Below are positions 1,628-55,686 of a DNA stretch of 64,000 nt, in pieces; positions within the stretch are counted from its first letter, which is position 1; each line of letters starts with the position of its first letter. This DNA is from a virus, in the IMG/VR virus record IMGVR_UViG_3300037852_000415, positions 1 to 64,000 of that record, one strand, 5' to 3'. The position numbers were made by a program, and so were the translations under genes. The notes under the pieces were generated by a model that saw nothing but the letters and a program-made list of their open reading frames with translations, did no database searches and was not told the DNA's origin.

Positions 1628-4600
1628 AAAAGCTCAAAGACAAGCCGTACGTCTCCAACTACCCGCCCCTCGACGCGTGGCTGAAAGAGCACGACGGGCG
1701 CTGTAATTGGCAGCTGCCCCTCGGCGACCCCGATGAGCCCCGAGGCTACGTTGAGTGCTGGCAGGTCGGAAAGGGGCTCGCGCTCATCATCGTCCACGCC
1801 AAGCAACTCGGCTGGGAGCTCTACACGGCCCCCAATACGAATCGAATCGACGAAACACTCATAGACGCCGCGCTCAGGCTCGGCTTTCACAAGGAAGAAA
1901 AGCCATGATGTCTCCCGAAGTAATCCGCGACCTCGCCGACGACGCCGCCCGCAAAGCCGCGCGTCTCAACAAGCGCCCCTACGCCATCTTCGACGAGGCG
2001 GAACTGGCGCGCTTCGCAAAGCAGGGGAAGCTCCCCTTCCCCTTCATCGGCAGCTATCTGCCGCCCGGCTACGAGAAGTGCGGCGAGTGGTTCGTCGACG
2101 CCTCCGGCTTCGGCGCAGAAGACGAGCCCGCCATGACCCGACGCGCCGTCTTCGTCGAGCTCGAGGAGCACATGAAGCAGGGCAACCTATACTGCTACGC
2201 CATCACCGAGGCGGGGCAGTTTCAGGTCTACATCGGCATCTTCAGAAAGGTAAGCAAGTGAAACTCTCACTCATAGCTGCGCTATCGCTGGCGCTCGCGA
2301 GCGCTGCGTGCGGCGCGGCGCCTAGCGGGACGCCGGCACCGCAACCAAACCCGTGCGCGCCGGCACCCGACACTGGCATCTGTGAGCGCTACGTCGCAGC
2401 GTGCTCGGGGAAGTACCCGACGCAAGTCGAGATTCCCTCTAGCTGCCCGGAGGCGGATGTTGCCCGTATCTGCGGCGACACCGAGGCCGCTTTGCCGGAC
2501 CCGAGCGCGTCGACGGAGAACGTGTGCGCGGAGGACTACCCAAACTACTCCGCGCCATGGGCCTGGTGCTGTCGGGGCCTCGCCGTCGTCAACAAGGGGG
2601 CGCGCGGTGGCTACGAAGCTAACTAAAAACCAGCGCGCGCTTCTCGTACTTTTGCGAGAGCTTACCAGCGTAAACGCGATGAGCCTGTCCAACGTCGATA
2701 AGCGCATCGCGGCCGGCTTGCTGCACCGCAAAGAGCCGTTGGTCATAGCGGTTCCGTGGCATCAGTACGGCAACCCCTCCGGCCCGACGTACATGCTCAA
2801 TGACGCGGGGCGCGCCGCGATGAAAGAGGCGGGCGATGATTGACGACAAGCCGCAAGCGAAGCCTTTCGAGGTAGCCCCCGAGGAGGCAGCGCGTATCGC
2901 CGAGTGGCTCGCCACAAGAGGGGGCCTCGCAATCTGGCGCAGCGTCAACCTCAGTAACGCCGGGGCCACGTGGGGCACGCCGGTGAACCGCGCCGACGGC
3001 ACCCCGACGCCCGCGCCAAGTTGGGAGTGCGAGAAGACCCCGTCGCGCGTCATCACAAGCGAGGACGACATCCACGTAGTCACGCGCAAGGAGGTGAAAC
3101 GCTTCCGCGTTCGCATCCGCACCAGCACCAACGGTTTGATGACGAAGCTTCAACGGAGCAGCGCGAGCCACCTCGAAACGGTGCTTGCGAGCGTGTCGAA
3201 GAAAACGGGGTTGGAGCCCGCCTACCACTTCGACTACGACACCCAAGAAGCCGTCATCACCGTACCCTGCGACAGGGTGCCCCTGGCTACCTTCCTCAAG
3301 AGGCGCTGATGAGACACAAAAGCTGCGCATGTATCCTGCGAGCGTTGCAGGCTGCGCTAGAGATTGCTACCGTTGACGCAGCTACGACGCCGCTAGCGTC
3401 AGACGGTACCTACATCACCCAAGGGCGTCGACCGAAGAGAGCCGAATCATGTCTACTACGTTTACCATCACACGTGAGCCCGTCAGCACTATCGTCGACA
3501 ACGTCCTGATTTTGGGGAGAGACCCCCTTGGGCCGTTTGCGACGGAGGAAGACTTCGAGGCGTGGGTCGCGTACGTGAAGGTGCGCGTAGCCATCTTCAG
3601 CCAGCTTCGCATCAGAGTGGACGTGCGCAGCGTCAACGAGGCGAATCAACGCAATCTCATCGTCTGCCTCGCGAGCCTGAATGAGCTCGTCATCCACGAC
3701 GCGCTTCAGCGCATCCATCACCAATGGATGGCCCTCGGCGCCCCCCGAGCAGAGCTCGAGGACGTCGACGATGATGACTTGTACGAAAAGCCGACTATCC
3801 CCAGCATCAAGGCACCCGCTGCATGAAGCCAAACAAGCGCTCGACTATCTCCGCCTCCTCTTTCGACGAGGAGCCACCCGCCACCGTGCCGGAGCCGGTG
3901 ACGTGTAAGGTGTGTAAGGGCGAGAAGATCGAGCGCTTGCCGCCGACGGATGCCGCTGACTACCGCGCGGTGCGCTGCACGCACTGCGATGGTACTGGCC
4001 TCGAGCCCCCGGAAGACGGCCCCCCGACACCGCGGGTGGACGTCAGCGCAAAAGCAGTAGGCAAGAGCGGCGAACGCCGCAAGATGCAGCAACGACTACC
4101 GCCGCCTAAGAAGAGGAGAGACGACTAATGAATCCGCGAGACAATACGAAGAAGCCCGAAGGCAAGAAAGACACGACTGCGCCGAAGGCGAAGAAGGGGC
4201 GCGTCATCAACCGGGGGCACAACCCCTCGCGCACCTACTTCTCCAACGCCGCCACGATGGCGAGCGTTGACAAGGGCAGCCACAATCCGCATCATCGGGG
4301 CGATGCGGGCTGGGGCGTAGCCAAGCGCGAGCCCCGCTTCGCTATCTTCCGCTACGAGTACGGCACCGACAAGAACGGTACGAAGAAACTCATGCTCCTC
4401 GCCGTCCTGCGCGACGCTGTCGTGTCGCGCAAACAGCAAGAGGCGTTTCAAGTCGACTCCGACGGGCGCTCAGCGCGCGCCGCCGAAGCGCCGAAAGAGG
4501 GGAAGTGATGCGCCTCAGCGCCAATAGCGGGGGATTGAATCCACACAAGCAGTGCGCCTGCTGCGCCGTCAATGAGGACCCTCCCCCGGAGCACGGGGAT

Positions 4601-9642: not shown

Positions 9643-9750
9643 ATGGGTGCAGGCGGCTGGCGGGTACTATTCGGAGGGCTCGTAATAGTAGCCGCCGTCG
9701 TGGACGCCAGAAACATCGAGAAGAGCCGCAAGCGCCGACGCCGCCGCTAG
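9643..9750 (+). CDS. 35-aa membrane peptide with basic tail
   Basis: Own translation MGAGGWRVLFGGLVIVAAVVDARNIEKSRKRRRRR*. Confidence 0.55.
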   Translation: MGAGGWRVLFGGLVIVAAVVDARNIEKSRKRRRRR

Positions 9751-9818: not shown

Positions 9819-11039
9819 ATGGGTGCACTACGTAGCTCGGGCGCAATTCGTAATACAGAGCTGGCCTACCTCTCCAGCATCGAGATTCTGGCCCTAGCGC
9901 GAGCGCAGGCCGCCGAGAAGTCGATCGCTGCCGGGGCGTTCTTACAAGGGGGCAACTCCTTCGCCGCGCCTGCGGTGTTGGGCACCAACGATGCTAACCC
10001 CCTTCTCATCAGAACTAACGGTGTGACACGCGCTGAGGCGGATACCTCAGGCAATTTCTTAGCGAACTCGTTCGACACGCTAAGCGCTACAGGGCTCACC
10101 GTCGGGGGCACCAACGCTACCTCCATCACTCTCGGGGGCAGTGGCCACCCGGGACTTACGGCAACAGTAGGAGTCGTCAGCGTCACGAGTAACTCTACGG
10201 GCACCATGCTGTTCGGAGGTAACGTCAACATCGACACGACTAGTGGCAATTTGAACCTGGGCGCCGCGAGCGGCGGTATCGCCATCAACATCGGGCTGCC
10301 GTCAAACACGCTCGCCGTAGCGGCGTCGACCTACACATTTCGCGGCACCGCTACTTTCACAGACGTAAACAACAACACCTGGCTCACGAACAGCGCTGTC
10401 GCGGGCGCAGTCAACTTCGTCAATATCTCTAACAACGCCACCGGTAGCGCGCCTAAGATCGTCTCGACGGGCACTGACGCAGCGGTCGGTCTAGCCATTG
10501 CTACTAAGGGCGCAGCGATCATCAATATGACGAACGCGACGGGCGCGCAGCTCTCCGGCGCCGGCCAAAACATCGTCTTCGCCGTCATCAACAACGGCGG
10601 GGCGTCGACGAGCGGCTGCGCGACCTTCGCGGGCGGCGACAGCAGCGGCACGAGCCGTATCATCGTCGACTTCCGCGAAGCGGCGGCGCTCGGCACCGTC
10701 GTAGGCTCTATCGCCATCACGACGGCGGCAACCGCCTTCAATACGAGCTCCGACAGGCGCCTCAAGAAAGACATCGTCGACACGCAACGAGGGCTTGCCG
10801 AGATTCTCAAGATACGTGTGCGCGACTTCGGCTTCAAAGTCGACGCCGATGGTGTCGCGAAGCGCACTGGCTTCATCGCGCAGGAGCTCATCGAAGTGGT
10901 ACCGAGCGCCGTCACCGTCGAGGCCGAAGGCGCCAAGTACATGCAGGTCGACTACTCCAAGTTGACGCCCTATTGCGTACGCGCTATCCAGCAGCTGCAC
11001 GCGCGCATCGAGCAGCTAGAGTCGAAGCTAGCCGCCTAA
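9819..11039 (+). CDS. Fibre/spike protein with C-terminal peptidase S74 intramolecular chaperone
   Basis: TSSDRRLKKDI...GFIAQEL...VDYSKL plus coiled-coil end; G/T/N-rich shaft. Confidence 0.88.
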   Translation: MGALRSSGAIRNTELAYLSSIEILALARAQAAEKSIAAGAFLQGGNSFAAPAVLGTNDANPLLIRTNGVTRAEADTSGNFLANSFDTLSATGLTVGGTNATSITLGGSGHPGLTATVGVVSVTSNSTGTMLFGGNVNIDTTSGNLNLGAASGGIAINIGLPSNTLAVAASTYTFRGTATFTDVNNNTWLTNSAVAGAVNFVNISNNATGSAPKIVSTGTDAAVGLAIATKGAAIINMTNATGAQLSGAGQNIVFAVINNGGASTSGCATFAGGDSSGTSRIIVDFREAAALGTVVGSIAITTAATAFNTSSDRRLKKDIVDTQRGLAEILKIRVRDFGFKVDADGVAKRTGFIAQELIEVVPSAVTVEAEGAKYMQVDYSKLTPYCVRAIQQLHARIEQLESKLAA

Positions 11040-11438: not shown

Positions 11439-13118
11439 ATGGGTGCTGTAAGGAGCTCTGGCGCGATACGCAACACGTTTCTCGCCTATCTCGCGTCAGA
11501 AGTACAGCTGGCGCTAGGTAAAGCCAACGCCGCCGCTACGGCGGCGCCGTACCCGCGCGTCAGTATCAACGCACAGTACAAGGCGGCGGACGGCGCCGAC
11601 GCGGCGGGGCGCCTCAATATGGGCCCCGCCACTACGCGCGCGTTCAACGTGCTCATGTCGCTAGCTGGCGTCGGCGGTACGGCGCAGAAAGGTGCGGGGG
11701 GGTACCTGTACTTCCTGCCCGGCGCCTACTCGTGGCAGGTGGGGCAGCTCCTCGTTCTAGGCACGCCCAACAACATCGAGTTTCTAGGCATCGACGGTGA
11801 AGGCGCGACGATCTTCCCCGACTTCGCCAGTGCGGGGGGCGTACAGACTCTCCTCACAGTTGGCGGGCAGGCCGGACAGAACATCACTCTGCGGTTAGAG
11901 GATATCAACTTTGCGAGCAACAACACAGGTATCCTCACGCCCGATATCGATAAGATCTTGCTGACCTCCTCCGACATCAACGTCGAGATGGAGCGCGTAG
12001 GATTCTTCGGGTTGAACGCCACGCCGTCGCTCACAAGCGGTATGGAGGGGGCGCTGTCGCTCAACGCGTGCACCGGGCTGTACTGCCGTCAAGTCACTGT
12101 CAGCGGGTGCTCAGTCTCCAACGGAGGCCACTGGTTCGACATTATCGGTAACTCCTACAGCACGATCTTCGTGGGCTGCAACTTGCTCACGGCCGGCTAC
12201 AACGGGGGCGGTGTAGATAAGAGCTCTGCTGCCGCAGCCTCCGTAGTCCACTCGCAAGGCGGCTCGCCGTTCGGGCAATCAGCGCACCTAATATTCATCG
12301 ACGTCGCCTTTGGGCTAAACGCTCAGCGAAGCGTTTGGTCCGATACACAGGCGGGGCAGTTCAACGACTCCGTTATCTTCGACGGCTGCACATGGCTAGA
12401 CGGCAGTAACGCGGGCGTAGCCATCGACGCGCACGACACTACTAGTGTCATCGCGAACGGGTGTACATTCGGGGCCAACGCTGCGGCCGGCCTCATCGTG
12501 ACGCGTTCAACCGGCAATGTCACAAATTGGACTTTCGAGGATTGCATCTGGCTAAAGTTCGCTTTCGTCGCAGCCGATCTGCTCGGGGTCGCCAACGCCA
12601 CCTTCCGCAGGTGCACAGGGTTCACGGGTGTCAACGCCAACACGATGACACTTCGCGCCGGCAACGGGCTGCTTCTCTTTGAGCAGTGCGACGGTATCCC
12701 AGGGTTTACTATTGTCGCCAACCCGACGCAGTTGAAGTATAAGTTCTCCGCAACGACGGTGAATACTACCAACGCGGCGCAGACGGCGACGCTCCTCAGC
12801 TTCCCGGTGCTTCCGGGGATGAGCGCCCAGTGGATCGCGGACGTCGTTGCGCGCGCTACGTCCGCCCCCGCGGGCGGCGCGATAGGCGACTCCTTCTTCT
12901 TCGCAGTGCCGCAAGGCGCCAAGAACGTTGGGGGCGTTATCACTACGTACCAGGCTACCGCGGGCGCGAGCAACACGTACGGTGACGCTACGATGAATTC
13001 GGTGGCCCTCGCGGCTCCGACATCTGGGGGCGGTATCGTGAACGTGCGCGTCAATCAGGGTGCAGGTGTCGGCAACAATAATACCTGGACCGGCGATATC
13101 GAAGTCAGCGTGGGGTAA
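11439..13118 (+). CDS. Tailspike-like beta-helix (pectate-lyase-like) receptor-binding protein
   Basis: GGYLYFLPGAY, IDGEGATI, repeated xFxxCx beta-helix turns. Confidence 0.75.
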   Translation: MGAVRSSGAIRNTFLAYLASEVQLALGKANAAATAAPYPRVSINAQYKAADGADAAGRLNMGPATTRAFNVLMSLAGVGGTAQKGAGGYLYFLPGAYSWQVGQLLVLGTPNNIEFLGIDGEGATIFPDFASAGGVQTLLTVGGQAGQNITLRLEDINFASNNTGILTPDIDKILLTSSDINVEMERVGFFGLNATPSLTSGMEGALSLNACTGLYCRQVTVSGCSVSNGGHWFDIIGNSYSTIFVGCNLLTAGYNGGGVDKSSAAAASVVHSQGGSPFGQSAHLIFIDVAFGLNAQRSVWSDTQAGQFNDSVIFDGCTWLDGSNAGVAIDAHDTTSVIANGCTFGANAAAGLIVTRSTGNVTNWTFEDCIWLKFAFVAADLLGVANATFRRCTGFTGVNANTMTLRAGNGLLLFEQCDGIPGFTIVANPTQLKYKFSATTVNTTNAAQTATLLSFPVLPGMSAQWIADVVARATSAPAGGAIGDSFFFAVPQGAKNVGGVITTYQATAGASNTYGDATMNSVALAAPTSGGGIVNVRVNQGAGVGNNNTWTGDIEVSVG

Positions 13119-13121
13119 TCG

Positions 13122-14909
13122 ATGGGTGCGACAGGGTCTACCGTAAAGTCCCGCGAGGTTCTGCGGGCTAAGATATCTGATAGATCGACGCTCGCCTCCA
13201 GACTAGTCGTCAATGCCGGGGGTACGATTCCGAGCTTCGCTAACGTCGCTGCGCTCGCCGCCTTCCCATCTGCGTCGCAACCGTTCGGGCAACTCGCATT
13301 TGTACAGACCGTCCAGGCGTATTGGACGTATACGCCAGGCGCCACGGAAACACCCGACGGCATTACCATCATCAACGCGTTGGGCGGAGGGCAATGGATA
13401 CGCCTCATAGAGCCCAGTCTTTTTTGGCAAGAGCAAGTGCGTTGGGATGTCGACCCCGTAACCGGTAACGACGAGAATAACGGCATCAGTCCTGCGACAC
13501 CGCTGAAGACGGCCGCCGAGTACACACGTCGTACCGGCACCGGTGACAACCGTGTAGTCTTCGGGCAGGTGGATGTGTTTATACATAACAGCCTTCCGGC
13601 GACAGACCAGTTGCTATTCGCTGCGCACTTCCAGAGCCAATCGAGCGTGCTCAACTTCCATGGGGTACCGGCCGTAGCGCACTCGGGCACGCTATCGGGA
13701 TTCGACCAGTACAACCAGGTCGCCGGAACGGCGACGCAGATTCACGACGCCGCCGCCCTCGACTTTACCCCATTCGTAGGGCAGCAGGTGCTTATCACTA
13801 GTGGCGCCGCTGCGGGTAGCCGAGGCAATATCCTCAAGGCTGTAAGCGCCGGTATAGCGCGTCTAGATTGGCTGACGCAGCCTACCGCGGGCAATATCGT
13901 GAACCCTACCTTCATAGCGCCCAGCCCGGGCGATACGTATGAGATTCTCACACTCCCGGTGGCGCCTAACTTTGCGCAAGACACCACCGGGTTCAGTAGC
14001 GACAACGCCCTGAATGTTGCCCAAGCATTCGTGGAGTTGCTCGACTTCGGTGACGCCGTACCCCCCGACGGTATCGCGAGCTCCACGCTGCCTATCAGTA
14101 TCTACTACTGCCGCTTTCCTGGTGTGACGGAGGCTGAAGGCAGTAGCTACTTCGGCTGTCTGTTTACCGGAGGTGGATTTAGCCCGCTCATCACTTCCGC
14201 ACTAACCGTGTGCGGGGTGCTCAACAGCTTCATCTTGTCAGGCAGCGGTAATGGCGTCTTGTGCTATGGCGTCGTCCTGCAGAACAGCAACATAGCCATA
14301 CAAGAGAACGGCTTCGTCGAGGCGCATACACTAGACTTGGGTATCGGTATATTCGATAGCGATTCGGTCATCACTACTGGTGAGCCGGAGACCGGGTATT
14401 TCTTCATCGAGGGTATCCTCTGGGGATCGAACAATACGACCTTCATCTTCAGCCTCACCGCAGGAAGCCAAGTCATCTTGAGCAACTCCTTCGCTACCAC
14501 GCTCGCCGTAACGGGCGGGGGCGGAGGGTACCATGACGTCATCATCAACGGGCACACGACGTTGCCCGCATTCGATCCCTCTACGGGACTGTTCACGGCG
14601 CCAGTGGCGCTGAGCTTCGCGAATATCAAGGCGACTATCGCCGCGGGCGGCTTCAACGGCAACGTGTGGGATCCGGGCAACCCTGTTACTGGGTTCTTCT
14701 GTCCTAACGGCGCGCTGACGACTTCGCTACTCACCTCCAACGGTAATGGGAGTGCCGGAGCGGTCACACAGGCGGAAGCGACTACGGAACCTACCTCTAA
14801 CCCTACGGCGGCGGCTATCGAGTTCGTGGGCGCGGCGGGTGGCGCTAATCCCGGCGCGCGGATCAACAGGGGCCCTCTGGGTACCATCACTACAATGGCG
14901 CCGGCATAA
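13122..14909 (+). CDS. Spike/fibre protein
   Basis: PDGITII...GGGQWIR and VDPVTGNDENNG...PLKT motifs found in tailspike-like proteins. Confidence 0.7.
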   Translation: MGATGSTVKSREVLRAKISDRSTLASRLVVNAGGTIPSFANVAALAAFPSASQPFGQLAFVQTVQAYWTYTPGATETPDGITIINALGGGQWIRLIEPSLFWQEQVRWDVDPVTGNDENNGISPATPLKTAAEYTRRTGTGDNRVVFGQVDVFIHNSLPATDQLLFAAHFQSQSSVLNFHGVPAVAHSGTLSGFDQYNQVAGTATQIHDAAALDFTPFVGQQVLITSGAAAGSRGNILKAVSAGIARLDWLTQPTAGNIVNPTFIAPSPGDTYEILTLPVAPNFAQDTTGFSSDNALNVAQAFVELLDFGDAVPPDGIASSTLPISIYYCRFPGVTEAEGSSYFGCLFTGGGFSPLITSALTVCGVLNSFILSGSGNGVLCYGVVLQNSNIAIQENGFVEAHTLDLGIGIFDSDSVITTGEPETGYFFIEGILWGSNNTTFIFSLTAGSQVILSNSFATTLAVTGGGGGYHDVIINGHTTLPAFDPSTGLFTAPVALSFANIKATIAAGGFNGNVWDPGNPVTGFFCPNGALTTSLLTSNGNGSAGAVTQAEATTEPTSNPTAAAIEFVGAAGGANPGARINRGPLGTITTMAPA

Positions 14910-14912: not shown

Positions 14913-15302
14913 ATGTCTCTACGATTCTGCCAACACCCGTGGCTCACCGACGTTATAGACACGACGAACGCCGTCGCTACGGCCTCTACAGCTACGCAGT
15001 TCGCGCCCCCGAGCGGTTCCGCTGGGATGATAGAGGTACGGGGCGTAGCGCGCCTCACGAGCGGCGCCTCGAGCGGGCACAGCGCTCCGTTCTACCTCGC
15101 GCAGGGGTTCAGCGACATCGGCGGCGTCGTCACGATGGAGGGGTCCGTGACGACCCTCGTCGCTATCTCATCGGGTAACGCGGCGCTGTCGACTGTCACC
15201 GTCACTATAGGGATCACGGCGAGCAAGGTAACGGTAACAGTTACGGGCATCGCGGCTACGAACATCGAGTGGCTCCTCGATGTGAGGTTTACAGGCAACT
15301 AG
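14913..15302 (+). CDS. Small beta-sandwich protein, paralogous to the C-terminus of 11439-13118
   Basis: Shared TTNA..TA, VAR, QG..D/N.GGV.T and terminal W..D motifs. Confidence 0.6.
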   Translation: MSLRFCQHPWLTDVIDTTNAVATASTATQFAPPSGSAGMIEVRGVARLTSGASSGHSAPFYLAQGFSDIGGVVTMEGSVTTLVAISSGNAALSTVTVTIGITASKVTVTVTGIAATNIEWLLDVRFTGN

Positions 15303-15718
15303 CTCTTCCGTATGCAGTGTCGACGGCGGCGCCGAGCGTGCTACTCTGCCTGAAGAGGTAGCCCATGTCTTTCGCCATCATCCCCGAATGCCAACTCGCC
15401 ATCGCCGTCACGGCGGGCGGGCGCTTCCGCTACAAGCACCGCGAGCGGTTCGTGCGTACCCTGCTCGTCTTCTACGCTGCGGCCGGGTTCAATGTTACGG
15501 GCCGTACCAACGCCAACGTCGCGGAATTGCGCGTAGGCACGCGCACCCCCGCAACACGCAACGTGTGCCTACAGCAAGGCACCATGAAGGCCCGCGGCTA
15601 ACCCTTGCGGCGCGTTTGGGGTGTGCCCCTAGACGATCTGCTTTGGTGGTACATCTTCGCCGCCGTTTCGGGTGCGGTGACGGCTTACGCCGTGGCGACT
15701 GTGTGCTAAAGTAGCCCC

Positions 15719-15973
15719 ATGAAGCTCGCACCCAGTGTTACGGTCGGTTTGGCGCAAGCGCCCGCAGCTGGGCAGCCCACAGCGGCTAGCCCCTGGTCTA
15801 CGGGGTTCGTACCGTTCCTATCCGGCGCTGTGGCGCTGGGTACGGCGGGGGCCCTCGCGGGGTACTTCATCACGAAGAAGCCTACGCGCGGCGCCGTAGC
15901 GGGGGCAGCAATCGGTATTAGCATCCCCCTCGCCGCCCACCTCTATTCGGGGCTCAGCGGGAATCAGGGGTAG
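15719..15973 (+). CDS. Small two-TM membrane protein
   Basis: Two hydrophobic segments; N-terminal VGLAQ motif. Confidence 0.7.
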   Translation: MKLAPSVTVGLAQAPAAGQPTAASPWSTGFVPFLSGAVALGTAGALAGYFITKKPTRGAVAGAAIGISIPLAAHLYSGLSGNQG

Positions 15974-15976
15974 TCG

Positions 15977-16507
15977 ATGACGGCATCTATCGCCTGCCCC
16001 CAGGGCTTCACGCTTCTACCCGACGCCGACGTCACCCCCGCAATCAGTGCACGCGCCGTAGCGCTTCTCACGCAGTGGCGGGGGCAACTCGCCGCCGGCA
16101 CCGCCGTCGTGGGCACCACGCAGAGCGTCGAGTGGACCGGCGAGATTCTCTGCGACTATCGCTTCGAGTGGCATCCCCCCGACGCGCAAAACTCAAGTGA
16201 GCACACCGGCGTCACCGTCTACTATTGCAAAGGAGCGGTAGCCTCCCCTTTAGGGCCGAGCTCGGTACCAACCTCGTCGTCGCCGCCGTGTCCTTCGCCG
16301 TCGTCGGCAGCGGCCTCGCCCTCGCCGCCTGGGTCCTCCGAAAGCCCCGCCGAGCCTGGAAACGCCTCAAGCCCGCCGGCTACTACGACTACCGGAAGCG
16401 GCGCAAGCACAGGTAGCCCCAGCGCGCCTCGGAGGCCCGTCGTCGAGGCCATCGACGCCGTCGAGCACGTCGTCGAAGCCATCATCCAAGAAGTGAAGAA
16501 GCTCTAA
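15977..16507 (+). CDS. Putative virion protein; a -1 frameshift product would end at 16416 with a TM anchor
   Basis: In-frame C CCT TTA at 16246-16252; the -1 frame encodes a TM helix and basic tail. Confidence 0.7.
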   Translation: MTASIACPQGFTLLPDADVTPAISARAVALLTQWRGQLAAGTAVVGTTQSVEWTGEILCDYRFEWHPPDAQNSSEHTGVTVYYCKGAVASPLGPSSVPTSSSPPCPSPSSAAASPSPPGSSESPAEPGNASSPPATTTTGSGASTGSPSAPRRPVVEAIDAVEHVVEAIIQEVKKL

Positions 16508-16593
16508 TGTGGCGCAAGCGCACAGGCGTTGGGTGAGGGCAGAAGCGCACGCCGGTCGGCGTCGTCGGCGAAGTCGGTTTAGGAGATTCCCCC

Positions 16594-17193
16594 GTGACAG
16601 CTCTCGACAACGCAATCGCATCTTTGGCGCAAGCGCAAGCTACGTGGAACACGTGGATGGGTGGAAGTCTCCCCGGCGACCTGCAGCATGGTGTAGCCGC
16701 CTACCAAGCCGCTGACGAAGCCAGCCTCGCTGCCGCCGCCTACGCCGCCAACCTAGCCCCCGGCACGCCCGCCGCCAACATGGCCCAGGGGAACGCCTTC
16801 GCGTGCAGTTCGGCGCGGCTAGCGCTCGATGCCGCGCTAAGCGCTTGGCTGAACCAATACGGGCAGGATGTCGCCTTCTGGCAGTCGGGGAACTACCGCC
16901 AGCAAGCGCAGACGATTCTCTTCGCTCTGGCGCCGGCCACGATTCAAGCGGCGCAGGCAGCGGTGCCGCCGGCAAGGTTCAATTTCAACTTGCCTAGAAG
17001 CAATTGGCAGCAGGGAAGAGTCGTGGCAACGAACCCTCGTAACAGCCGCGTCGGCGTGGGGCAGACGGCGGCTTCCACCTTCGCCCCCGGGGGCACCGCG
17101 ACGCCGCTCATCATCTTCTCTCTACTCGGCATCGCTGGGCTAGCGGCGATGGCAATCATCAGCGAGAAGTTCGCAAGCAAAAAGCAGAGGTAG
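16594..17193 (+). CDS. Ala-rich membrane protein with C-terminal anchor
   Basis: RVGVGQ motif, LIIFSLLGIAGLAAMAII TM, KKQR tail. Confidence 0.7.
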   Translation: MTALDNAIASLAQAQATWNTWMGGSLPGDLQHGVAAYQAADEASLAAAAYAANLAPGTPAANMAQGNAFACSSARLALDAALSAWLNQYGQDVAFWQSGNYRQQAQTILFALAPATIQAAQAAVPPARFNFNLPRSNWQQGRVVATNPRNSRVGVGQTAASTFAPGGTATPLIIFSLLGIAGLAAMAIISEKFASKKQR

Positions 17194-17195
17194 CT

Positions 17196-17753
17196 ATGGG
17201 GTGGGAGGAAGGTTACGCGCCGCTCGAGGGCTGGAGTAACTTCCAGTCGCTGTATCAAGACGCCATCAACGCCGCGCCTGCGAAAGGCGCTGTCTTCGTC
17301 GAGATGGGCGTCGCTCTCGGCCGCTCCGCCTTCATGATGGCGGATATGATTGCGAAGAGTAAGAAGGACATCACCTTCTTCGCTATCGACCTCTGGGATA
17401 CGGTGCCAGCTCGCCAGTGGGCCGGTTTTGCCAACGACTTCTTCGGGCAGTTCCTCGAAGGCGCCGTCAAGCACGCTCGGGGGCTACTGAAACACGTACG
17501 CATCCTACGCCTCGACAGCGTCGCCGCCAGTAAGGCGTTCGCAGACGCAAGTATAGACTTCTGCTTCATCGACGGAGAACACTGGTACGACCCCGTAAGA
17601 CGCGACGTTCTCACTTGGCTGCCCAAAGTGAAGCCGGGGGGAGTTATAGCGGGGCACGACTACGATCAGCCCCAGTTGAAGCGCGCCGTCATCGACATCT
17701 TCGGAGAAGGCCGTGTGGAGCCGGTGGCTACGAGTTGGCGCGTTCGCGTGTAG
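17196..17753 (+). CDS. Class I SAM methyltransferase (Methyltransf_24-like)
   Basis: FVEMGVALGRS, AIDLW, FIDGEHWY, KPGGVIAGHDY. Confidence 0.85.
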   Translation: MGWEEGYAPLEGWSNFQSLYQDAINAAPAKGAVFVEMGVALGRSAFMMADMIAKSKKDITFFAIDLWDTVPARQWAGFANDFFGQFLEGAVKHARGLLKHVRILRLDSVAASKAFADASIDFCFIDGEHWYDPVRRDVLTWLPKVKPGGVIAGHDYDQPQLKRAVIDIFGEGRVEPVATSWRVRV

Positions 17754-17924
17754 CGCGGCACTCTGCGTCGGCTGCGCTGGCTGGCAAGCGACGGCGCTCA
17801 ACACTGCGAAGACGTGGGCTAAAACTGGAAGCCTCTACAGAAGCCAGCATACGCATGTCGGCATCCGCCCCAGCTTCGATTCAGGGGTAGCTGTCGAAGT
17901 GCGCGTCACTACCGACAAGATGCC

Positions 17925-26728: not shown

Positions 26729-26965
26729 ATGTCTACGGCAGCCAAAGCAGACACCCCCAAGTGCGACGTGCCGGGGTGCGGGCGCTACGCCTCATTCTGT
26801 ACCGACGGCACTGAGAAGGACATCGCCGTACGCGGCGGTGAGCCGTTGAATCGTAAGCCGCTCGTCAACATCAACGTGTGCGCAGCGCACTCGAATTGGC
26901 CGTTCTCCGACGATGCCAAGACGTGGGTTGCCGCCAACGCAGCCATCTACGAGAAGAGGAAGTAA
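26729..26965 (+). CDS. Small Cys/His protein
   Basis: CDVPGC...CAAH. Confidence 0.65.
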   Translation: MSTAAKADTPKCDVPGCGRYASFCTDGTEKDIAVRGGEPLNRKPLVNINVCAAHSNWPFSDDAKTWVAANAAIYEKRK

Positions 26966-26969
26966 GCCG

Positions 26970-27452
26970 ATGCCGCTCTTTTACACCGACGTCCCGGGCG
27001 CTACGCAGACGACCAACGCCGCCCCCAATACGCCCAACGACTGCTTCTTCATCGCCCCCGGCGCGACGCGCACGGTGTGGCTCAACGCCATCTACCCCAC
27101 AGGCCGCGGCGCAACGCTCACCTCCATCAGCGGTATCAGCTACCGCCTCGAGAAGTGGACGACGACGGCATCAAGCGGCGGCACCGCGATTACGCCCTCC
27201 CCGAACGACCCGGGGTACCAGGCTGCGAAGCACGCCGCCGGCTTCAGCGCCGCCACCGTCACCAGCGGCACCGGCGGGCCGACGCTGATGCTCTCTATCG
27301 GCAGCGGCACCACCTCACCTGGTAACTGGATTGCACCCACGCCCGACCAGGGGTACTCACTGCAGGCGGCGGCGACGCAGAGCCTCGACATCTTCAACGT
27401 CGCCGGTGCGGCGTCGCTCGTCTTCGAGATGAGCGTCGGCACTTGGGAGTAA
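26970..27452 (+). CDS. Putative small beta-sandwich (jelly-roll-like) structural protein
   Basis: T/G/A/S-rich, alternating beta pattern, terminal strand FEMSVGTWE; strong C-ending codon bias. Confidence 0.6.
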   Translation: MPLFYTDVPGATQTTNAAPNTPNDCFFIAPGATRTVWLNAIYPTGRGATLTSISGISYRLEKWTTTASSGGTAITPSPNDPGYQAAKHAAGFSAATVTSGTGGPTLMLSIGSGTTSPGNWIAPTPDQGYSLQAAATQSLDIFNVAGAASLVFEMSVGTWE

Positions 27453-27456
27453 GCGC

Positions 27457-27744
27457 ATGAACCAGCCGACGGCTAATTACGCATTCGATTTCATCTACGA
27501 TGGCGCGTCCGCCACAGTCGTAATAGATCTGCGCAAAGGGCCGGGGGTTTTCTCGCTCCCTAGCTTTACAGGCGCGCTGCCCCCAATGTTCTTCTCGCAG
27601 AACCCGATCAGCGTAGATAGAGCAGCCGTAAGCGACGTACCCACTACAGCATCTGTCGCTGGCGAGCTGTTGACCGTCGATATCCCCGCGGGTACGTCGG
27701 CTGGGCTAAACTACGCTACGGTATTTCTCTATTACACCTTCTAG
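27457..27744 (+). CDS. Hypothetical beta-rich protein
   Basis: In operon with flanking genes. Confidence 0.55.
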   Translation: MNQPTANYAFDFIYDGASATVVIDLRKGPGVFSLPSFTGALPPMFFSQNPISVDRAAVSDVPTTASVAGELLTVDIPAGTSAGLNYATVFLYYTF

Positions 27745-27753
27745 GCACGAACC

Positions 27754-28110
27754 ATGTCGGACGGTACTCTACTCAATCCAGTACAAGCTACAGGCGGCGA
27801 CCTCGTCAGTGACGAAGACATGACGGGGCAGGTGCGTCTATCTTCGTTGGTGCCGCAACTCGGCGCCGTCAACGCCTCCTACAAGATCGAGCGTACTAAG
27901 ATCGCCATCGGCGATTACGACACCGACCGCGGCGACATCTCGAGCGACGGCGGGCGCCCGCTGCCGGTGGAGACCTTCGTCGAGCGTCGACTTCAAGAAG
28001 AGCAGTACCTCCGCGCCACCGAGGCCCAATACGCCAAGTTGACGCGGCGTACTAGCGAGCGCCCGCCTACGCTGTTCTTCAGCCGCACTGGGCGCGAGGG
28101 GAGAATCTAA
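27754..28110 (+). CDS. Hypothetical structural protein
   Basis: In operon; TAATG overlap with the next gene. Confidence 0.6.
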   Translation: MSDGTLLNPVQATGGDLVSDEDMTGQVRLSSLVPQLGAVNASYKIERTKIAIGDYDTDRGDISSDGGRPLPVETFVERRLQEEQYLRATEAQYAKLTRRTSERPPTLFFSRTGREGRI

Positions 28111-28763
28111 TGCTATTCGAAGCCATCGTCCGAAGATTCCCGGCGCTGAAGACGCTCAGCGAGGCGACAGTCGGCGGGCGTCTTACTGGTCTACTCAGCC
28201 TAGCCGTTGCTCAAGTCGAAGACGAGTTCACCGAGATGACTCGTGCCGGTAGGCGCTTCAACGGCATCTTCGGGACTGTGGGTATCCAGTCGGTACAGGC
28301 AGTACCAACCACCGCTGCGGCGTGGGCTCTGTTCAACGCAGATAAGAATCGATCATATGTCATTGACTCCGTGACAACGTTTTTTCTGTCGGGCACTGCC
28401 GGTATCGGCGGTACGTTGGTGGGTATAGTGTCGCCCATCACCTCCACGATACCGGCAGCAGCCGCAACAGCGACGGTCGGTAACTGTAGCGCCAGCGGGT
28501 TGGTCAGTAAAGCTGCCCTCGCCGTCAACTACACACTCCCCACACCGTCTGGAATGATTCAGTGGGGCATTCTGCCGGGCTTCCAAGGGCAGACCACAGG
28601 TGTTGCGCCAGGGTTAGGGGGCGCCTACAGTGCCGACGTGCGCGGGCGTCTGATCATTCCGCCCGGAGATGTATTGGGGCTATCGCTCATCACCGTGGCC
28701 GGTACTACGCCGCTGTTCATCATGGGCGTCGCTTGGCACGAAGTAGAGCTAGATCTCGAGTAG
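28110..28763 (+). CDS. Putative jelly-roll-like structural protein
   Basis: LFN...SYVIDSV...GRLIIPPGDVLGL...GVAWHE beta-sandwich pattern. Confidence 0.6.
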   Translation: MLFEAIVRRFPALKTLSEATVGGRLTGLLSLAVAQVEDEFTEMTRAGRRFNGIFGTVGIQSVQAVPTTAAAWALFNADKNRSYVIDSVTTFFLSGTAGIGGTLVGIVSPITSTIPAAAATATVGNCSASGLVSKAALAVNYTLPTPSGMIQWGILPGFQGQTTGVAPGLGGAYSADVRGRLIIPPGDVLGLSLITVAGTTPLFIMGVAWHEVELDLE

Positions 28764-28774: not shown

Positions 28775-31165
28775 GTGCGCCTAGCTCTCATAGCCGGCAT
28801 CGCCGCGGCTCTCGAAGAGCCCGGCATAAGCCAACAGCCGATAGCGCCCGACGTAGCCGTTGTCGTAGCGTCTGTCGGCGAAGACTTCGCCGGCTCGCTG
28901 GCCGCAGATGAAGCTCCCGGCGTCGTCGCTGTCGTCGTTGACATCGCGGCTGCTTACGCAACCGTACCGGAAGACTTCGCCGGCTCTCTACCTCGTGAAG
29001 AGCCCCCTGGCGCAACGGCGACAGTCGCCCCCGACGTACCGTCCGCGCCCACCGCGCCGGAGGACTTCGCCGGAAGCCTTCCCCTCGAAGAGCCGCCAAG
29101 CATCGCAGCACCGGCGAGCGCCGATGTCTCTTTCTTCAGCGTACCGCAGGCGCCCGAAGACTTCGCCGGCTCCTTGCCGCTCGAGGAGAACGGGTTCATC
29201 TCGCTGCCGCCGGCTGTCGACATCTTCGGCGCCCCGCCGCCGCAGCAAGAAGACTTCGTTGCGCCTGTTGCTGCCCTCGTCGCCGAAGACGTCTTCGCCG
29301 TCGCGCCAGCATCGCTCGACGTCGCATCGCCGCAACCGCCACAAGCTGAAGACTTCCCCGGCGCTGCCACGGGGCTCGAGGAGAATGCCTTCGTCGCTTT
29401 CACACCGGCTGTCGACATCTGGCTTACACCCTCTATCGATGAAGGCTTCTGGGGCGCGTACTCTTCTGAAGAGAACGGCTTCGTCTCGCCGCCTATCGGC
29501 GTGCAGCTCGACTTCACCATTGTCACGCCGTCTGTCGACGAGGGCTTCTGGGGCGCCTATTCGAGCGAAGAGCCCGCCGCGGCTACGGCAATCGTCGTAG
29601 ACGTCATCGTTGTCACGCCGAGCGGCGGCGAAGACTTCGGCGGCGCGCATCCGACAGAGGAGACGTCGCCGCTTCAAACAACTATCGCAGACATCTGGTA
29701 TCCGCAAGCGCCTGTCGCTGAAGACTTCGCGGGCAGTCTGCCGCTCGAGGAGTTGGGGAGTACGGCAATAGGCGCTGCCCCCGACGCGCCCACCGCCCTC
29801 AGCGCAGCGTCTGAAGAATTCGGTGGGGCGCACCCAACAGAAGAGCAGCCCGGTGCCGCCGCGCAAGTCGACTTCGTCTTCTTCGCTTCGCTACCGGCGC
29901 AGCGAGAAGACTTCGCCGGCAGCGCGGTGTTCGGGGGCGAAGAGACCTCTACCCCCGCCATCGCGCCCTTCATCGACATTCTTCCCGCGCTCCCGACGAT
30001 GTCGGAGGAGGTCTTTGCCGGAAGCGCGCCCTTCGGGGGCGAAGAGACTTCTACGCCTGCGATTGCGCCTTTCGTCGCCGACGCTCAACTGCCCGCGGCG
30101 CCCAGCGCCGAGGAGTTCGGCGGCGCTCACCCCACTGAGGAGCAGCCCGGCGCAGTAGTGATAGTAGACATCTTGCCGCTACTGCAAGCGGCACCGCAAC
30201 AGGAGGACTTCGCCGGAAGCCTTCCGTTTGAGGAGGCTACGTCGATACCGCCGCTCTCTGTAGAGGCGCCTTGGCTCGGTATCGCCGTAGGCGTTAGTGA
30301 AGACTTTGCGGGAAGCTTGCCGCAAGAGGAATCGACTAGCCCCACTGTCACCTACGTGCTTCTCGAGCCCCAATCGTCGCTAGCTGCGCCAGAAGACTTC
30401 GCCGGAAGCGCGCCTATCGAAGAGGTACACGGCGAACCTAACGCTCCTCTTTTCATTCAGCGCGTCGTACCCCCGTGGTTGACAATCAGCACCCCCGAGG
30501 AATCGCCGCCAACTCCGGTGACGCCCCCGACACCACCGTACGTGCCGGTGTACGTGCCGCCCGTGCCCCAAACAGGCGGAGGCGGGGGCGCTGGGGCGCT
30601 CGGCTTCGGGCCCCCGGCGGTGCCCGTAGCGCCGCAGTGTGACTACGCTCTCTTGCACGATCCGAATGCCGCCGAAGTGAAGGCGATTGCCGCAGGCGTC
30701 GTTGAACACTTCTTTGATCCCAAAGGGGGCTTCTCGCTCGTCATCACCGCAGACGACGGTACGCGCTACTTCTATGCGAAGCTCGGGTGCTACGTCGGGA
30801 AGTCGGGGCGGCGCGTGAAACCCGGTGAAGTCGTCGCCAAGATGAAAGGGCCGGCAGTGCCTACAGTGCAGCTGCCCCCCAAGCCGGCGGTCGGTTTGGA
30901 AGCTTTAGCGCTGCCTGAGGCGCCGAAGCCTACGGTGGTGGTGCCTATCTACGTAGCCCCCGCGCCTGCGCCTGCGCCTGTGCCCGCACCGATTCCGGCT
31001 CCTATGCCGCCTGCGCCATTGGCGAAGCCGCAGAGTATCGTGCCGGCGCTCATCATCACGGGGCTCGTGGCGACGGGCCTCGTGCTCGTAGTCGCGCTTG
31101 TACTCGACGACAAGCCTAAGCGTAAACGCGGCAAGAAGAAGCGAAGGCGCAGGCTAAGGCGTTAG
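28775..31165 (+). CDS. Acidic repeat protein with degenerate M23 domain, C-terminal TM and basic tail
   Basis: 17 E[DE]F[AG]G....EE-type repeats; VKAIAAGVV...GGFSLVI..DDG..YFYAKL; TM then KPKRKRGKKKRRRRLRR. Confidence 0.8.
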   Translation: MRLALIAGIAAALEEPGISQQPIAPDVAVVVASVGEDFAGSLAADEAPGVVAVVVDIAAAYATVPEDFAGSLPREEPPGATATVAPDVPSAPTAPEDFAGSLPLEEPPSIAAPASADVSFFSVPQAPEDFAGSLPLEENGFISLPPAVDIFGAPPPQQEDFVAPVAALVAEDVFAVAPASLDVASPQPPQAEDFPGAATGLEENAFVAFTPAVDIWLTPSIDEGFWGAYSSEENGFVSPPIGVQLDFTIVTPSVDEGFWGAYSSEEPAAATAIVVDVIVVTPSGGEDFGGAHPTEETSPLQTTIADIWYPQAPVAEDFAGSLPLEELGSTAIGAAPDAPTALSAASEEFGGAHPTEEQPGAAAQVDFVFFASLPAQREDFAGSAVFGGEETSTPAIAPFIDILPALPTMSEEVFAGSAPFGGEETSTPAIAPFVADAQLPAAPSAEEFGGAHPTEEQPGAVVIVDILPLLQAAPQQEDFAGSLPFEEATSIPPLSVEAPWLGIAVGVSEDFAGSLPQEESTSPTVTYVLLEPQSSLAAPEDFAGSAPIEEVHGEPNAPLFIQRVVPPWLTISTPEESPPTPVTPPTPPYVPVYVPPVPQTGGGGGAGALGFGPPAVPVAPQCDYALLHDPNAAEVKAIAAGVVEHFFDPKGGFSLVITADDGTRYFYAKLGCYVGKSGRRVKPGEVVAKMKGPAVPTVQLPPKPAVGLEALALPEAPKPTVVVPIYVAPAPAPAPVPAPIPAPMPPAPLAKPQSIVPALIITGLVATGLVLVVALVLDDKPKRKRGKKKRRRRLRR
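28877..30430 (+). repeat. 17 degenerate coding repeats of about 90-100 nt (core GAAGACTTCGCCGG)
   Basis: Counted in the translation. Confidence 0.85.
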
Positions 31166-46467: not shown

Positions 46468-47262
46468 ATGTCTTCCCTCGTCGACCTGAAGTACAACATC
46501 TACCCCAAGGGCCCGCTGACGGCCGCGCAAATCGTCACTGCGTTGTCGTCCTTCGCGGTGACACCCTACCCCATCGACCTCTTCAACAAGGTGGGGCTGG
46601 TGCTCAATACCATCGCGACGTCGGGCACCAATCCGGTAGTGTTGGATTTACAGTTTTTCCTGCGCCCCAACCCCAACGGAGCCATGACAGCCGCTATCAC
46701 CCAGGGCGGCAGCATCGACGCGCTCACAGGCCTAACGATTGGTACCAAGGGCCACCCATGGGCCGAGCCGCCCATCATCAGTTTCAACCCCGGCTTGACG
46801 CCCCCGGCACGCGCGGCACAAGCTAGGGCTACCCTCGATGTTCTCGCTGCCAACATCGTCTTGCCGGGTACCGGCTACACCGCCCCGGTAGTCACCGCCG
46901 TCGGGGGCCTCGGGCCTGGCGGGGTGGCGGCTACATTCTCCGCTACCGAAGCCGCGGGCGCCATCAACAACGTTACCGTGCTGACTAACGGCAGCGGCTA
47001 CATCAGCCAACCGTTTCTGGTCGTCACCGACCCGACCGGCAAGGGCGCGCTCGTCACGCCATTTATGGAATTGAATGCTGTGTCTGTTGTCGACGGCGGC
47101 GGCGGCGGCTACGTCGCGGCACCGACAGTCGTACTGACGGCCGGATTCCAGTACCGCTTCCCCAACAATCCCGCCGCCCCCTTCGTCAACATGCTGACGA
47201 ACCTGCTCAAAGCGACTCTTGGGGCGCCGGTCACCGCGCAGATTCCTTCGTACACGCCGTAA
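46468..47262 (+). CDS. Putative virion fibre protein
   Basis: Repeated V..(P/N/G)G.GY..P.V units seen in phage structural proteins. Confidence 0.6.
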   Translation: MSSLVDLKYNIYPKGPLTAAQIVTALSSFAVTPYPIDLFNKVGLVLNTIATSGTNPVVLDLQFFLRPNPNGAMTAAITQGGSIDALTGLTIGTKGHPWAEPPIISFNPGLTPPARAAQARATLDVLAANIVLPGTGYTAPVVTAVGGLGPGGVAATFSATEAAGAINNVTVLTNGSGYISQPFLVVTDPTGKGALVTPFMELNAVSVVDGGGGGYVAAPTVVLTAGFQYRFPNNPAAPFVNMLTNLLKATLGAPVTAQIPSYTP

Positions 47263-47273
47263 CAAGGAGCATC

Positions 47274-48803
47274 ATGGCTACAGCAGAAAACGACGGCCTG
47301 GAGGCCTTCGAGGAGTCGAGTATCGAGGAAGAGACTGAAGAGGAAGAGGCTGGTGAAGAAGAGCCCGAAGAGGTGCCCGCCCCGCCCGCGCCTGTGCACC
47401 TCGCCAAGACTAAGACGCCCGGCGCGGCTGCCGATAAGAAGCGAAAGCCCCGCAACGACAAGGGCGGCACCCACGCTGCGCCCGGTGAGGGGTGGACCAA
47501 TCGCGAGGCAGACCTCATGTGGCCCGAGATGCTTCAACGCATCGGGCGGCTCAATCCCCCGCGTACGCCGTACGACCTCAGCATCCAAGTGATTCGGTTG
47601 TCGCCATCAGCGGTGACGTTGCCGAACCAGATCGACGGCGCCTACGTCGTCGGCGACAAGCGCCGTTCACCGGGTGACGCGCTCAGGGAAGCCGTCATCG
47701 ACTACTACCACCTGCCCGCCAACTGCGGCCCCGAAGAGTACGAGCTACGTTTCGTATGGAAGCAGACCGGGCGCGTCTACGGCAGGGGGAAGCTCACTCT
47801 CCCCTCCTGCGAAGAGATCATCGGCTACAGGCAGGCTGCCGAGCGCATGCGGCGCCGCCCCAGACAGGCTCACGGAGGCATGGCGAATCCGGCGCTCGAC
47901 GATGCGCCGTACGATGAATTCGAGCCGCCCCAGGCGCCGCGCAGGACCCCCGTAGGCTACGGCGCTGCGCCGCCGCAAGCGCCGGTGTTTGCGCCTGCGC
48001 CGTCGGCGTCGGCTGCGGACGCCTCTGGCGAGGTTGGCTACCTGCGACAGCAAGTAGGCTACTTGAGCGGGCAGCTGCAGCAGCTGATGGGTCTCATGGG
48101 CAAGCCTGGCTTCGGCGCCGCGCCGCCGTCGACGGCGCCAACCGGTGTCGCTGCAGCGCCGATGCCTGCGCCGCAAGCGCCGCCTGCCTCCTTAGAGGAG
48201 GCGATTGAGCGCGCCGCCGAGCGCATCCTAGCGCGCGCCGGCATCAAGCCGGGTATGCCGGGTGTCGGCACCGCCGGTACGCCCCCGCCTACCCCCGCAA
48301 GTGCCACTAACGAGCTTCACGCCGGCATCAACGCCTTCCGCACCTTCGTCGGTTTGGGCAAAGAGCTCCGACATCTCGCGAAGGAATTGAACAACGACTT
48401 CGGCGAAGGCGCCGGGGGCGCCGACGAAGAGCCGCAGCAGCTCATAGCGGAGCCCGTCGTCACTCCACCTAGCCCCGAGGATAAGCTCCCTTTCGAGGTG
48501 GTGCCCATTCCCGAGACAGACTTCCTCGGACACCCCGCAAAGTACGCCATCGATAAGGAGACGGGCGGCTTCTCGAGGGAGGGCTTCTTCATGGCGAACC
48601 CCGGTCTCGCTGAAAAAGCCATCGAAGTTGGCGGCAAGCTTGTCGAGGCGCTTAGCCGTATCGGTAAGGGCGGGGCCCCCCAGCAAGCTGCGGCGGAAGT
48701 CGTGCGCGAGATTCCTAGGGGTGCAGTAGACGCAGGCGTCGCCGGCAACGGTGGCGGCAGTAACGATGGCGGTGAAGTGCCGGACGGTAACGGAGGACTC
48801 TAG
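47274..48803 (+). CDS. Acidic/Pro-rich putative morphogenesis or scaffold protein
   Basis: Poly-E N-terminus; low-complexity centre punctuated by GYGA, GFGA, GVAA, GVGT. Confidence 0.65.
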   Translation: MATAENDGLEAFEESSIEEETEEEEAGEEEPEEVPAPPAPVHLAKTKTPGAAADKKRKPRNDKGGTHAAPGEGWTNREADLMWPEMLQRIGRLNPPRTPYDLSIQVIRLSPSAVTLPNQIDGAYVVGDKRRSPGDALREAVIDYYHLPANCGPEEYELRFVWKQTGRVYGRGKLTLPSCEEIIGYRQAAERMRRRPRQAHGGMANPALDDAPYDEFEPPQAPRRTPVGYGAAPPQAPVFAPAPSASAADASGEVGYLRQQVGYLSGQLQQLMGLMGKPGFGAAPPSTAPTGVAAAPMPAPQAPPASLEEAIERAAERILARAGIKPGMPGVGTAGTPPPTPASATNELHAGINAFRTFVGLGKELRHLAKELNNDFGEGAGGADEEPQQLIAEPVVTPPSPEDKLPFEVVPIPETDFLGHPAKYAIDKETGGFSREGFFMANPGLAEKAIEVGGKLVEALSRIGKGGAPQQAAAEVVREIPRGAVDAGVAGNGGGSNDGGEVPDGNGGL

Positions 48804-48805
48804 TC

Positions 48806-49123
48806 ATGGCTAAGAAGCAAAAGTCGACGGCGTCGGAAGCTTTCAAGAACACCCCGAAGACGCGCGTCATGCGCCCCGGTAGAAAGCCGACGAAGTACTG
48901 GCTCGACATCGACGCCGCGCTTACCATCGACGACAATACGAGTTTCGCGTTCAAGTTCCACGGGCTCGCGCCGAAGTTCGGAGGCCTCAGGCCGGAGGAG
49001 CTGCCTACGCTCCTGCGCGACCTAGCCGCGCAGCTAGAGAGCCAAGTGTCCACGTTCGATCTTGGCGCTATGGCCGGCGAAGCGGCCGCAGCCAAGGCGA
49101 CATCGAAGAAACAGCCGAACTAG
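48806..49123 (+). CDS. Hypothetical protein
   Basis: Follows 47274-48803 directly. Confidence 0.6.
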   Translation: MAKKQKSTASEAFKNTPKTRVMRPGRKPTKYWLDIDAALTIDDNTSFAFKFHGLAPKFGGLRPEELPTLLRDLAAQLESQVSTFDLGAMAGEAAAAKATSKKQPN

Positions 49124-50516: not shown

Positions 50517-50594
50517 CTTGCCGCCACGGCGGCTTCTGCTGCGGTGTCTCATAGGGGGTAGCTTACTCCAACGTCATACTGTAGGCTACAGCTT

Positions 50595-51719: not shown

Positions 51720-51725
51720 GGAGTT

Positions 51726-52061: not shown

Positions 52062-52093
52062 AATGCGCGACGTGCTCGTTCGGTGGATGAGCC

Positions 52094-52378: not shown

Positions 52379-52380
52379 CC

Positions 52381-53416: not shown

Positions 53417-53476
53417 CGCAGTTGCGCACACGAGTACGCAGCGGTAACCTATCGTAGTCAAAAGGAGACTACCAAG

Positions 53477-54430: not shown

Positions 54431-54433
54431 CAA

Positions 54434-55616: not shown

Positions 55617-55686
55617 ATTGGGCGAGACGGGCAGAGTACGTCGCCAAGTGTGAGGGCTGAGGTTCACTGAGTCCAAGGCGAGGAGG

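Follow-up and report, generated by a model that had tools for sequence, protein, structure and literature searches.

A phage gene with a conserved slippery heptamer and two coding frames probably yields free and membrane-anchored forms of one protein by -1 frameshifting

We analysed a 64,000-nucleotide stretch of viral DNA (the window), which forms the first 64 kb of the 77,344-bp IMG/VR virus record IMGVR_UViG_3300037852_000415, and in it a + strand gene at 15977-16507 (ATG at 15977, TAA at 16505-16507; 176 amino acids in frame 0). From the sequence we infer that this gene is likely to be decoded by programmed -1 ribosomal frameshifting at the slippery heptamer C_CCT_TTA (16246-16252). Four observations carry this reading: the heptamer lies in the phase required for a slip, both frames downstream of it are under selection, the arrangement is kept in a second phage and in a 98% identical variant, and no start codon of the -1 frame is conserved.

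The heptamer was read directly at the position proposed in a first-pass annotation of this DNA. It falls on the frame-0 codons TCC CCT TTA, that is, in X_XXY_YYZ phase (phase 2 relative to the ATG at 15977), with CCU for the P site and the rare UUA for the A site, and is the sole + strand copy of CCCTTTA in the window. Among 17 long open reading frames (ORFs) of the window taken as genes, in-phase X_XXY_YYZ heptamers account for 0.3% of codons, and the subset whose second triplet is A or T for 0.06%. TTA is the rarest leucine codon (14 of 653, or 2.1%). C_CC.U_UU.A is among 18 heptamers that are reported to be under-represented in enterobacterial genes, gives >0.10% frameshifting without stimulators in E. 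coli, and stands outside the top shift-prone class there (PMC4066793).

Up to and including the slippery codons (15977-16252, residues 1-92), frame 0 encodes an N-terminal domain that would be shared by both products. The -1 frame is open from 16201 to a TAG at 16414-16416; past the heptamer (16252-16416) it would read as a short link, a hydrophobic stretch of about 26 residues forming a membrane helix (~16261-16338), and a poly-basic, Lys/Arg-rich tail of about 25 residues (~16339-16413). Frame 0 reads the same region as a disordered linker rich in Ser, Pro, Ala and Thr (16253-16435), followed by a C-terminal amphipathic helix (residues 154-175) and the TAA (16436-16507). The predicted frameshift product would thus have 92 + 54 = 146 residues and the frame-0 product 176, which agrees with the sizes proposed earlier. 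The earlier junction, F-R-A-E, needs correction, as tandem slippage would instead read S-P-L-R-A-E.

To see which frame is coding, we used a codon model trained on the 17 window genes and expressed as log-odds per codon. In the N-terminal part frame 0 scored +0.45 and the -1 frame -0.48; in the overlap (16253-16413) the values were -0.29 and +0.58, respectively; and over the last 29 codons they were +0.87 and -1.03. The G+C content at third codon positions (GC3) was highest in frame 0 to about 16240, then in the -1 frame (0.90-0.93) to 16416, and again in frame 0 from 16420 to the stop, where values of 0.70/0.33/0.80 at the three codon positions form the typical pattern. By both measures the selected frame runs 0, then -1, then 0, and the first switch is at the heptamer, which lies inside the ~20-codon stretch where the coding frame changes. 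That frame 0 is rich in Ser, Pro, Ala and Thr in the overlap is a consequence of the C that the -1 codons carry in third position. From 16253 to its last few codons, frame 0 lacks ATG, GTG and TTG, and therefore the C-terminal helix can be reached only as the end of the full frame-0 product.

The first-pass annotation had named an indel in the assembly as a refutation. We looked for it in Logan contigs, assembled from three sequencing runs. Two runs, possibly the source of the record, gave contigs that match the window exactly across the stretch; the third (X3), from a different study, gave a contig of 2,051 bp that shows 96 differences, none of them an indel within the gene; the first indels are at 16962. 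The search for an assembly indel thus came out negative. The X3 variant encodes a 176-residue protein (P0003) that is 98% identical to that of the window, and its differences change character along the gene. All 11 listed differences in 15977-16245 are at frame-0 third positions. Past the heptamer, those at 16260 and 16266 (and at 16308, inferred from an A-to-V change in P0003) are at frame-0 second positions, where they change the frame-0 residue and are synonymous in the -1 frame, while 16375 is at a -1 first position and replaces A by T where the tail is variable. Past the -1 stop, differences fall on frame-0 third positions again at 16423, 16432 and 16474, and the one at 16439 replaces V by I. 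P0003 shows that the frame-0 residue changes number four in all. No difference is listed in the heptamer, and P0003 keeps S-P-L.

The second phage, L002, is a 69.6-kb contig, also in IMG/VR, with a homologue 60% identical in the domain. The gene order is the same, running from a gene resembling tail fibres through small membrane-protein genes to the homologue, then to an anchor protein and a methyltransferase that shares 85% identity with its window counterpart. L002 has C_CCT_TTA at 4261-4267, in the same phase, within nine identical bases and between flanks that have diverged and carry a 6-nucleotide indel. Its -1 frame continues with L-G-T, a membrane helix and a poly-Arg tail, and its frame 0 with a Ser/Pro-rich stretch and then a C-terminal amphipathic helix. 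The heptamer, whose conservation had been proposed as a check, is thus identical and in phase in L002, and no change is listed in it in the X3 variant. The earlier impression that both frames look selected is now borne out by composition, the codon model, the substitutions in the variant and the conservation in L002.

The tail of the window's -1 frame has a further counterpart. Its motif AWKRLKP..DYR..RK.R-stop recurs, with synonymous codon differences, in a free-standing 44-residue gene of L002 (3482-3613), which has a GTG start, a membrane helix and the tail AWKRLKP...RKR-stop; L002's own -1 ORF ends in poly-Arg. The recurrence of the motif with synonymous codons speaks for translation of the -1 frame as far as its stop, and it suggests that anchor tails have been exchanged between genes. 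These findings bear on the possibility that only frame 0 is translated and that the membrane-like -1 frame is a compositional shadow of the Ser/Pro-rich linker, NCN-rich frame-0 codons automatically yielding hydrophobic or small -1 residues. A shadow, however, would account neither for a codon model and GC3 that favour the -1 frame in 16253-16413, nor for frame-0 residue changes (16260, 16266 and the inferred 16308) that are -1-synonymous, nor for a basic tail motif kept as protein in another gene, and stops are absent from the -1 frame over 71 codons in the window and 78 in L002. We regard this explanation as very improbable.

Other relatives were compared as proteins. P0004 (175 residues) and P0005 (164 residues) have the same frame-0 build, with a single Leu before the helix, in a 'P-L' at the equivalent place; their tails would be compatible with a -1 membrane helix and an Arg-rich tail. 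The C-terminal helices of L002, P0004 and P0005 are comparable. P0008 (116 residues) carries the domain, a ~21-residue hydrophobic stretch and a short basic end in one frame; what the slip is predicted to make is therefore known elsewhere as an ordinary protein. A further homologue, L003 (62% identical), ends after a short Pro-rich tail. In a sister lineage (P0001 and P0006, proteins only) there is no 'P-L', and 'C-P-K' directly follows the domain, before a Pro/Ser/Gly-rich tail; one may speculate that this C-P-K, if encoded by TGC CCA AAG, is a classic C_CCA_AAG slippery site. Scans of IMG/VR with the N-terminal domain gave no match, and a scan with the methyltransferase recovered the L002 contig alone.

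The single-frame form of P0008, the metagenomic origin of the assembly, and the runs of four C and three T at the site would all suit a sequencing or assembly indel, or a recent inactivating frameshift, in a gene that otherwise encodes domain and anchor in one frame. Yet the same frames are found in contigs of all three runs, including the variant from an independent study, and the arrangement is repeated in a different phage; frame-0 products of 164-176 residues were called in further assemblies (P0003, P0004, P0005), and the frame-0 C-terminal helix is strongly coding and conserved, unlike dead read-through. We thus consider an artefact or a fresh inactivation extremely unlikely.

Ten nucleotides upstream of the heptamer stands AGGAG (16231-16235), an internal Shine-Dalgarno (SD)-like run, read where it had been claimed and proposed here as a 5' stimulator. 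Paired with a generic anti-SD, the 17 nucleotides upstream gave -8.3 kcal/mol in the window, -8.0 in the variant (where 16234 A>G turns AGGAG into AGGGG) and -9.9 in L002 (GGGGGU), ranking in the top 4%, 4.5% and 1% of in-gene windows, respectively. The SD-like runs pair more strongly than the SDs of neighbouring gene starts. Their spacing to the heptamer, 10 nucleotides in the window and 14 in L002, is in the range of 9-14 nucleotides at which an upstream SD stimulates -1 frameshifting (review PMC5009743). The first-pass annotation had described the site as 'dnaX-style', with a weak hairpin downstream. The upstream element of that description stands, but the hairpin is not supported: GCCG-AGCT-CGGT is present 2-3 nucleotides past the heptamer, too close to it given the 5-9 nucleotides at which a 3' structure stimulates, has only about -7 kcal/mol, does no better than shuffled sequence, and is absent from L002. 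Six downstream folds of 60-100 nucleotides were no better than shuffles (positive z-scores), and none was common to the window and L002. We therefore rejected 3' RNA structure as a stimulator. Transcriptional slippage was also rejected, because the C4 and T3 runs are too short.

Several points weigh against frameshifting. Downstream of the heptamer, neither the window nor L002 showed a hairpin or pseudoknot that is significant or conserved. The heptamer class is weaker in E. coli than X_XXA_AAG or X_XXU_UUY (PMC4066793), and the re-pairing of UUA to UUU is near-cognate. The anti-SD used for pairing is a generic one, and that of the host may differ. Comparison with a diverged relative at the DNA level was with L002 only, P0004, P0005 and P0008 having been compared as proteins, and the variant counts are a lower bound, with 57 differences over 1,501 compared bases beyond those listed. 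No RNA run is among the sequencing runs listed as holding the sequence. Finally, the free-standing 44-residue gene of L002 resembles the window's -1 ORF from GTG 16288 on, so such peptides can be made alone, and GTG 16288 would give a peptide of similar length (43 residues).

The last point favours the main rival explanation, in which the -1 ORF is a small membrane-protein gene of its own, nested (as Rz1 is in Rz) within the part of the larger gene that encodes the linker and translated from TTG 16225 (63 residues) or GTG 16288 (43 residues), and the heptamer is incidental. Both candidate starts are present in the window, and the virus has other very small ORFs with a helix and a basic tail, for example 9643-9750. 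Neither start is conserved, however. TTG 16225, the only upstream -1 start in the window, is CTG in the 98% variant (16225 T>C), and the equivalent of GTG 16288 in L002 is ATC. Past the heptamer the L002 -1 frame has no ATG, GTG or TTG, and its sole upstream start is a GTG 84 nucleotides upstream of the heptamer, inside the conserved E-W-H codons; from the same GTG in the window the -1 frame runs into a TGA. The L-G-T conserved in the -1 frame and the changes that are silent in it (16260 and 16266) all lie upstream of GTG 16288. Neither candidate start has an SD, and the strong SD-like runs have no start codon at initiation distance after them in any frame, in the window or in L002. An embedded gene would also leave the identical in-phase heptamer of both phages unexplained, and P0008 shows that a fused domain-anchor architecture exists. 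We thus judge an embedded gene unlikely.

For programmed -1 frameshifting we propose the following mechanism. Most ribosomes would stay in frame 0 and make the soluble 176-residue protein, that is, the domain, a ~60-residue linker and the 22-residue helix. A minority would slip by -1 while CCU occupies the P site and the rare UUA the A site, re-pairing CCU to CCC and UUA to UUU, probably helped by pairing of the upstream SD-like run with 16S rRNA. No tRNA genes were found in the 77-kb genome, which, with TTA as the rarest leucine codon, makes a pause at the A site plausible. The slipped ribosomes would read 54 codons of the -1 frame and make a 146-residue protein consisting of the domain, a membrane helix and a strongly basic tail. 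Since a 3' structure lacks support, the efficiency should be modest and the anchored product minor; C_CCU_UUA being only moderately shifty in E. coli also points to a minor slip. By the positive-inside rule the basic tail would lie in the cytoplasm or on the side of the DNA, with the domain directed towards the cell wall. The frame-0 helix probably serves self-association or docking. The virus would thus have free and membrane-tethered forms of a cell-wall-directed module at a fixed ratio.

One variation on this mechanism is that the ratio of anchored to free form reports the physiology of the host: if tRNA-Leu(UAA) were scarce, the A site would be empty and peptidyl-tRNA-Pro would slip from CCU to CCC. 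Such a slip would time wall attack or the loading of a virion membrane in a phage of Polyangia-type myxobacteria, would leave the junction S-P-F-R and not S-P-L-R, and would resemble the bldA-dependent TTA codons of Streptomyces. We consider it distinctly doubtful.

What the protein does can be approached through its N-terminal domain. AlphaFold2 predicted the N-terminal part with a predicted local distance difference test (pLDDT) of 89, as one helix and three strands (core residues ~8-88 above 90), the linker as disordered (residues 90-152, pLDDT 41-51), and residues 154-175 as a helix of 22 residues (pLDDT ~88) with a heptad-like pattern. Neither a Foldseek search of PDB with the domain (no match at E <= 0.001) nor a wide fold search with VIA-align (best Z 4.3, not meaningful) gave a convincing match to a solved fold. 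The domain has 142 relatives in soil metagenome contigs, and there are 55 representative proteins. Their consensus (15977-16240, loci L004-L130) is ...VTPAMT.WAV.IL...ARVEWHPPDFQN..HRGVTLY, with H66, D69, N72, H76 and G78 invariant. As modelled, the domain is an unannotated family of ~80-88 residues with an alpha/beta fold.

Most of the relatives are stand-alone proteins of ~71-85 residues in metagenome-assembled genomes (MAGs) of Polyangia (Polyangiaceae, Kofleriaceae, Haliangiales). A scan of GTDB genomes with the close clade gave no match, and a scan with the wider family found only stand-alone copies, in Polyangia MAGs. Because the domain family occurs there, a soil myxobacterium of the Polyangia is the probable host. 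In other relatives the domain is N-terminal to GH25 muramidases (with or without PG_binding_1), to an Rv2525c-like hydrolase, or likewise N-terminal in a PG_binding_1 protein, and in one it is inside a 1,913-residue protein that also carries SpoIID. From this company we read the domain as a putative accessory module of cell-wall hydrolases, with a binding or regulatory role; a catalytic role is possible. The window protein itself was rejected as a GH25 endolysin, since it has no Pfam match and GH25 is found only in relatives, after the shared N-terminal domain.

The record from which the window comes has direct terminal repeats and is rated complete; the window has a G+C content of ~63%. A blastn search of phage GenBank with 15300-17800 gave no match. 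Upstream of the gene are helicases and three proteins resembling tail fibres or spikes by Pfam, PHROG and position: an S74 chaperone fibre (9819-11039; Pfam/PHROG), an ORF with a weak beta-helix match below the Pfam cut-off (11439-13118), and one placed here by position and size only, with no family match (13122-14909). After the fibre genes come small membrane-protein genes, the gene itself, a 199-residue anchor protein and the methyltransferase. The immediate upstream neighbour in the ORF list (15719-15973, + strand; 84 residues) has hydrophobic segments and no PHROG match. The 199-residue downstream neighbour (16594-17193, + strand) is built like the -1 product, ending in a membrane helix and a short basic tail, and its C-terminal part matches L002:4593-4724.

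A membrane helix with a Lys/Arg-rich C-terminal tail is found in at least nine further + strand ORFs of the window (9643-9750, 16594-17193, 28775-31165, 50595-51719, 52381-52950, 53246-53416, 53477-53992, 53993-54430 and 56889-58625), and is a recurring C-terminal anchor device of this virus. The anchored form of our protein would therefore join an existing set of tail-anchored proteins, whose membrane may be that of the host or, as the first-pass annotation had it, one of the virion. One anchor-tailed ORF (53417-53992) also holds C-P-Q-G-F-Q-L-A-P-Q-G, resembling the start of the N-terminal domain, C-P-Q-G-F-T-L-L-P, and may contain a second, diverged copy of this motif. No capsid, portal or terminase family was recognised by Pfam or PHROG in 20 further window ORFs, including the large late-region ORFs tested in 46468-63801 and 26913-28763; the sole late-region match among the large ORFs tested was a sub-threshold M23 domain in 28775-31165. 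The 12-mer TGGCGCAAGCGC has three exact + strand copies within 900 nucleotides around the gene (15750-15761, 16510-16521 and 16625-16636), two in coding sequence, where they read L-A-Q-A, and one just past the frame-0 stop; at one mismatch or fewer it has 7 matches, against 1.8 expected.

If the proposal is true, a frameshift decides whether a cell-wall-directed module is free or tethered to the membrane. Gene callers give only the 176-residue frame-0 ORF, so the anchored form is missing from protein databases, as probably are similar ones elsewhere. The finding also highlights an unannotated domain, common in soil Polyangia, that is carried on GH25, Rv2525c-like, SpoIID and PG_binding_1 modules. 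Phages are well known to use programmed -1 frameshifting for tail chaperones and capsid decorations; in the literature searched we found no described case of frameshift-controlled membrane anchoring of a lysis-associated protein.

The same heptamer, CCCUUUA, is presumably the gag-pol -1 slip site of Giardia lamblia virus. That is a eukaryotic double-stranded RNA virus whose site has a structure downstream and makes a polymerase fusion, and the likeness speaks only to tRNA re-pairing. E. coli dnaX (tau/gamma) also has two products with a common N-terminus, an in-phase X_XXY_YYZ heptamer, a shorter frameshift product, and an internal SD ~10 nucleotides upstream (PMC5009743). The gene families are unrelated, however, and the heptamer of dnaX is A_AAA_AAG, whereas here it is C_CCU_UUA without a supported 3' stem-loop. 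The -1 frame of dnaX stops after one codon, whereas here it would add 54 residues with a membrane helix and a basic tail. We thus rejected a cassette of the dnaX type, of which only the SD is in common.

With lambda G/GT (G_GGA_AAG) the gene would have in common a conserved -1 slip in a late gene, giving a fixed ratio of proteins with a common N-terminus, and recognition by the heptamer and by conservation of both frames, not by sequence similarity. The G/GT frameshift product is the longer one, and that gene lies between the tail tube and the tape measure. The window gene stands after three tail-fibre or spike genes and before a methyltransferase, its domain goes with peptidoglycan hydrolases, and its frames overlap by 55 codons; with no Pfam or PHROG match either, it does not resemble a tail assembly chaperone, as had been noted earlier. 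Lambda Rz/Rz1 is alike in that two frames of one late stretch are both coding, one Pro-rich and one membrane-anchored. Rz1, however, starts independently, bears a lipoprotein signal and is in the +1 frame, whereas here the second frame is -1, has no conserved start, and would share its N-terminal domain with the frame-0 product. A spanin pair of this type was rejected, as the embedded ORF has no lipobox and the N-terminal Cys of the outer ORF no hydrophobic signal. What sets the window gene apart is its 55-codon dual-coding overlap, in which the two frames end in different conserved modules.

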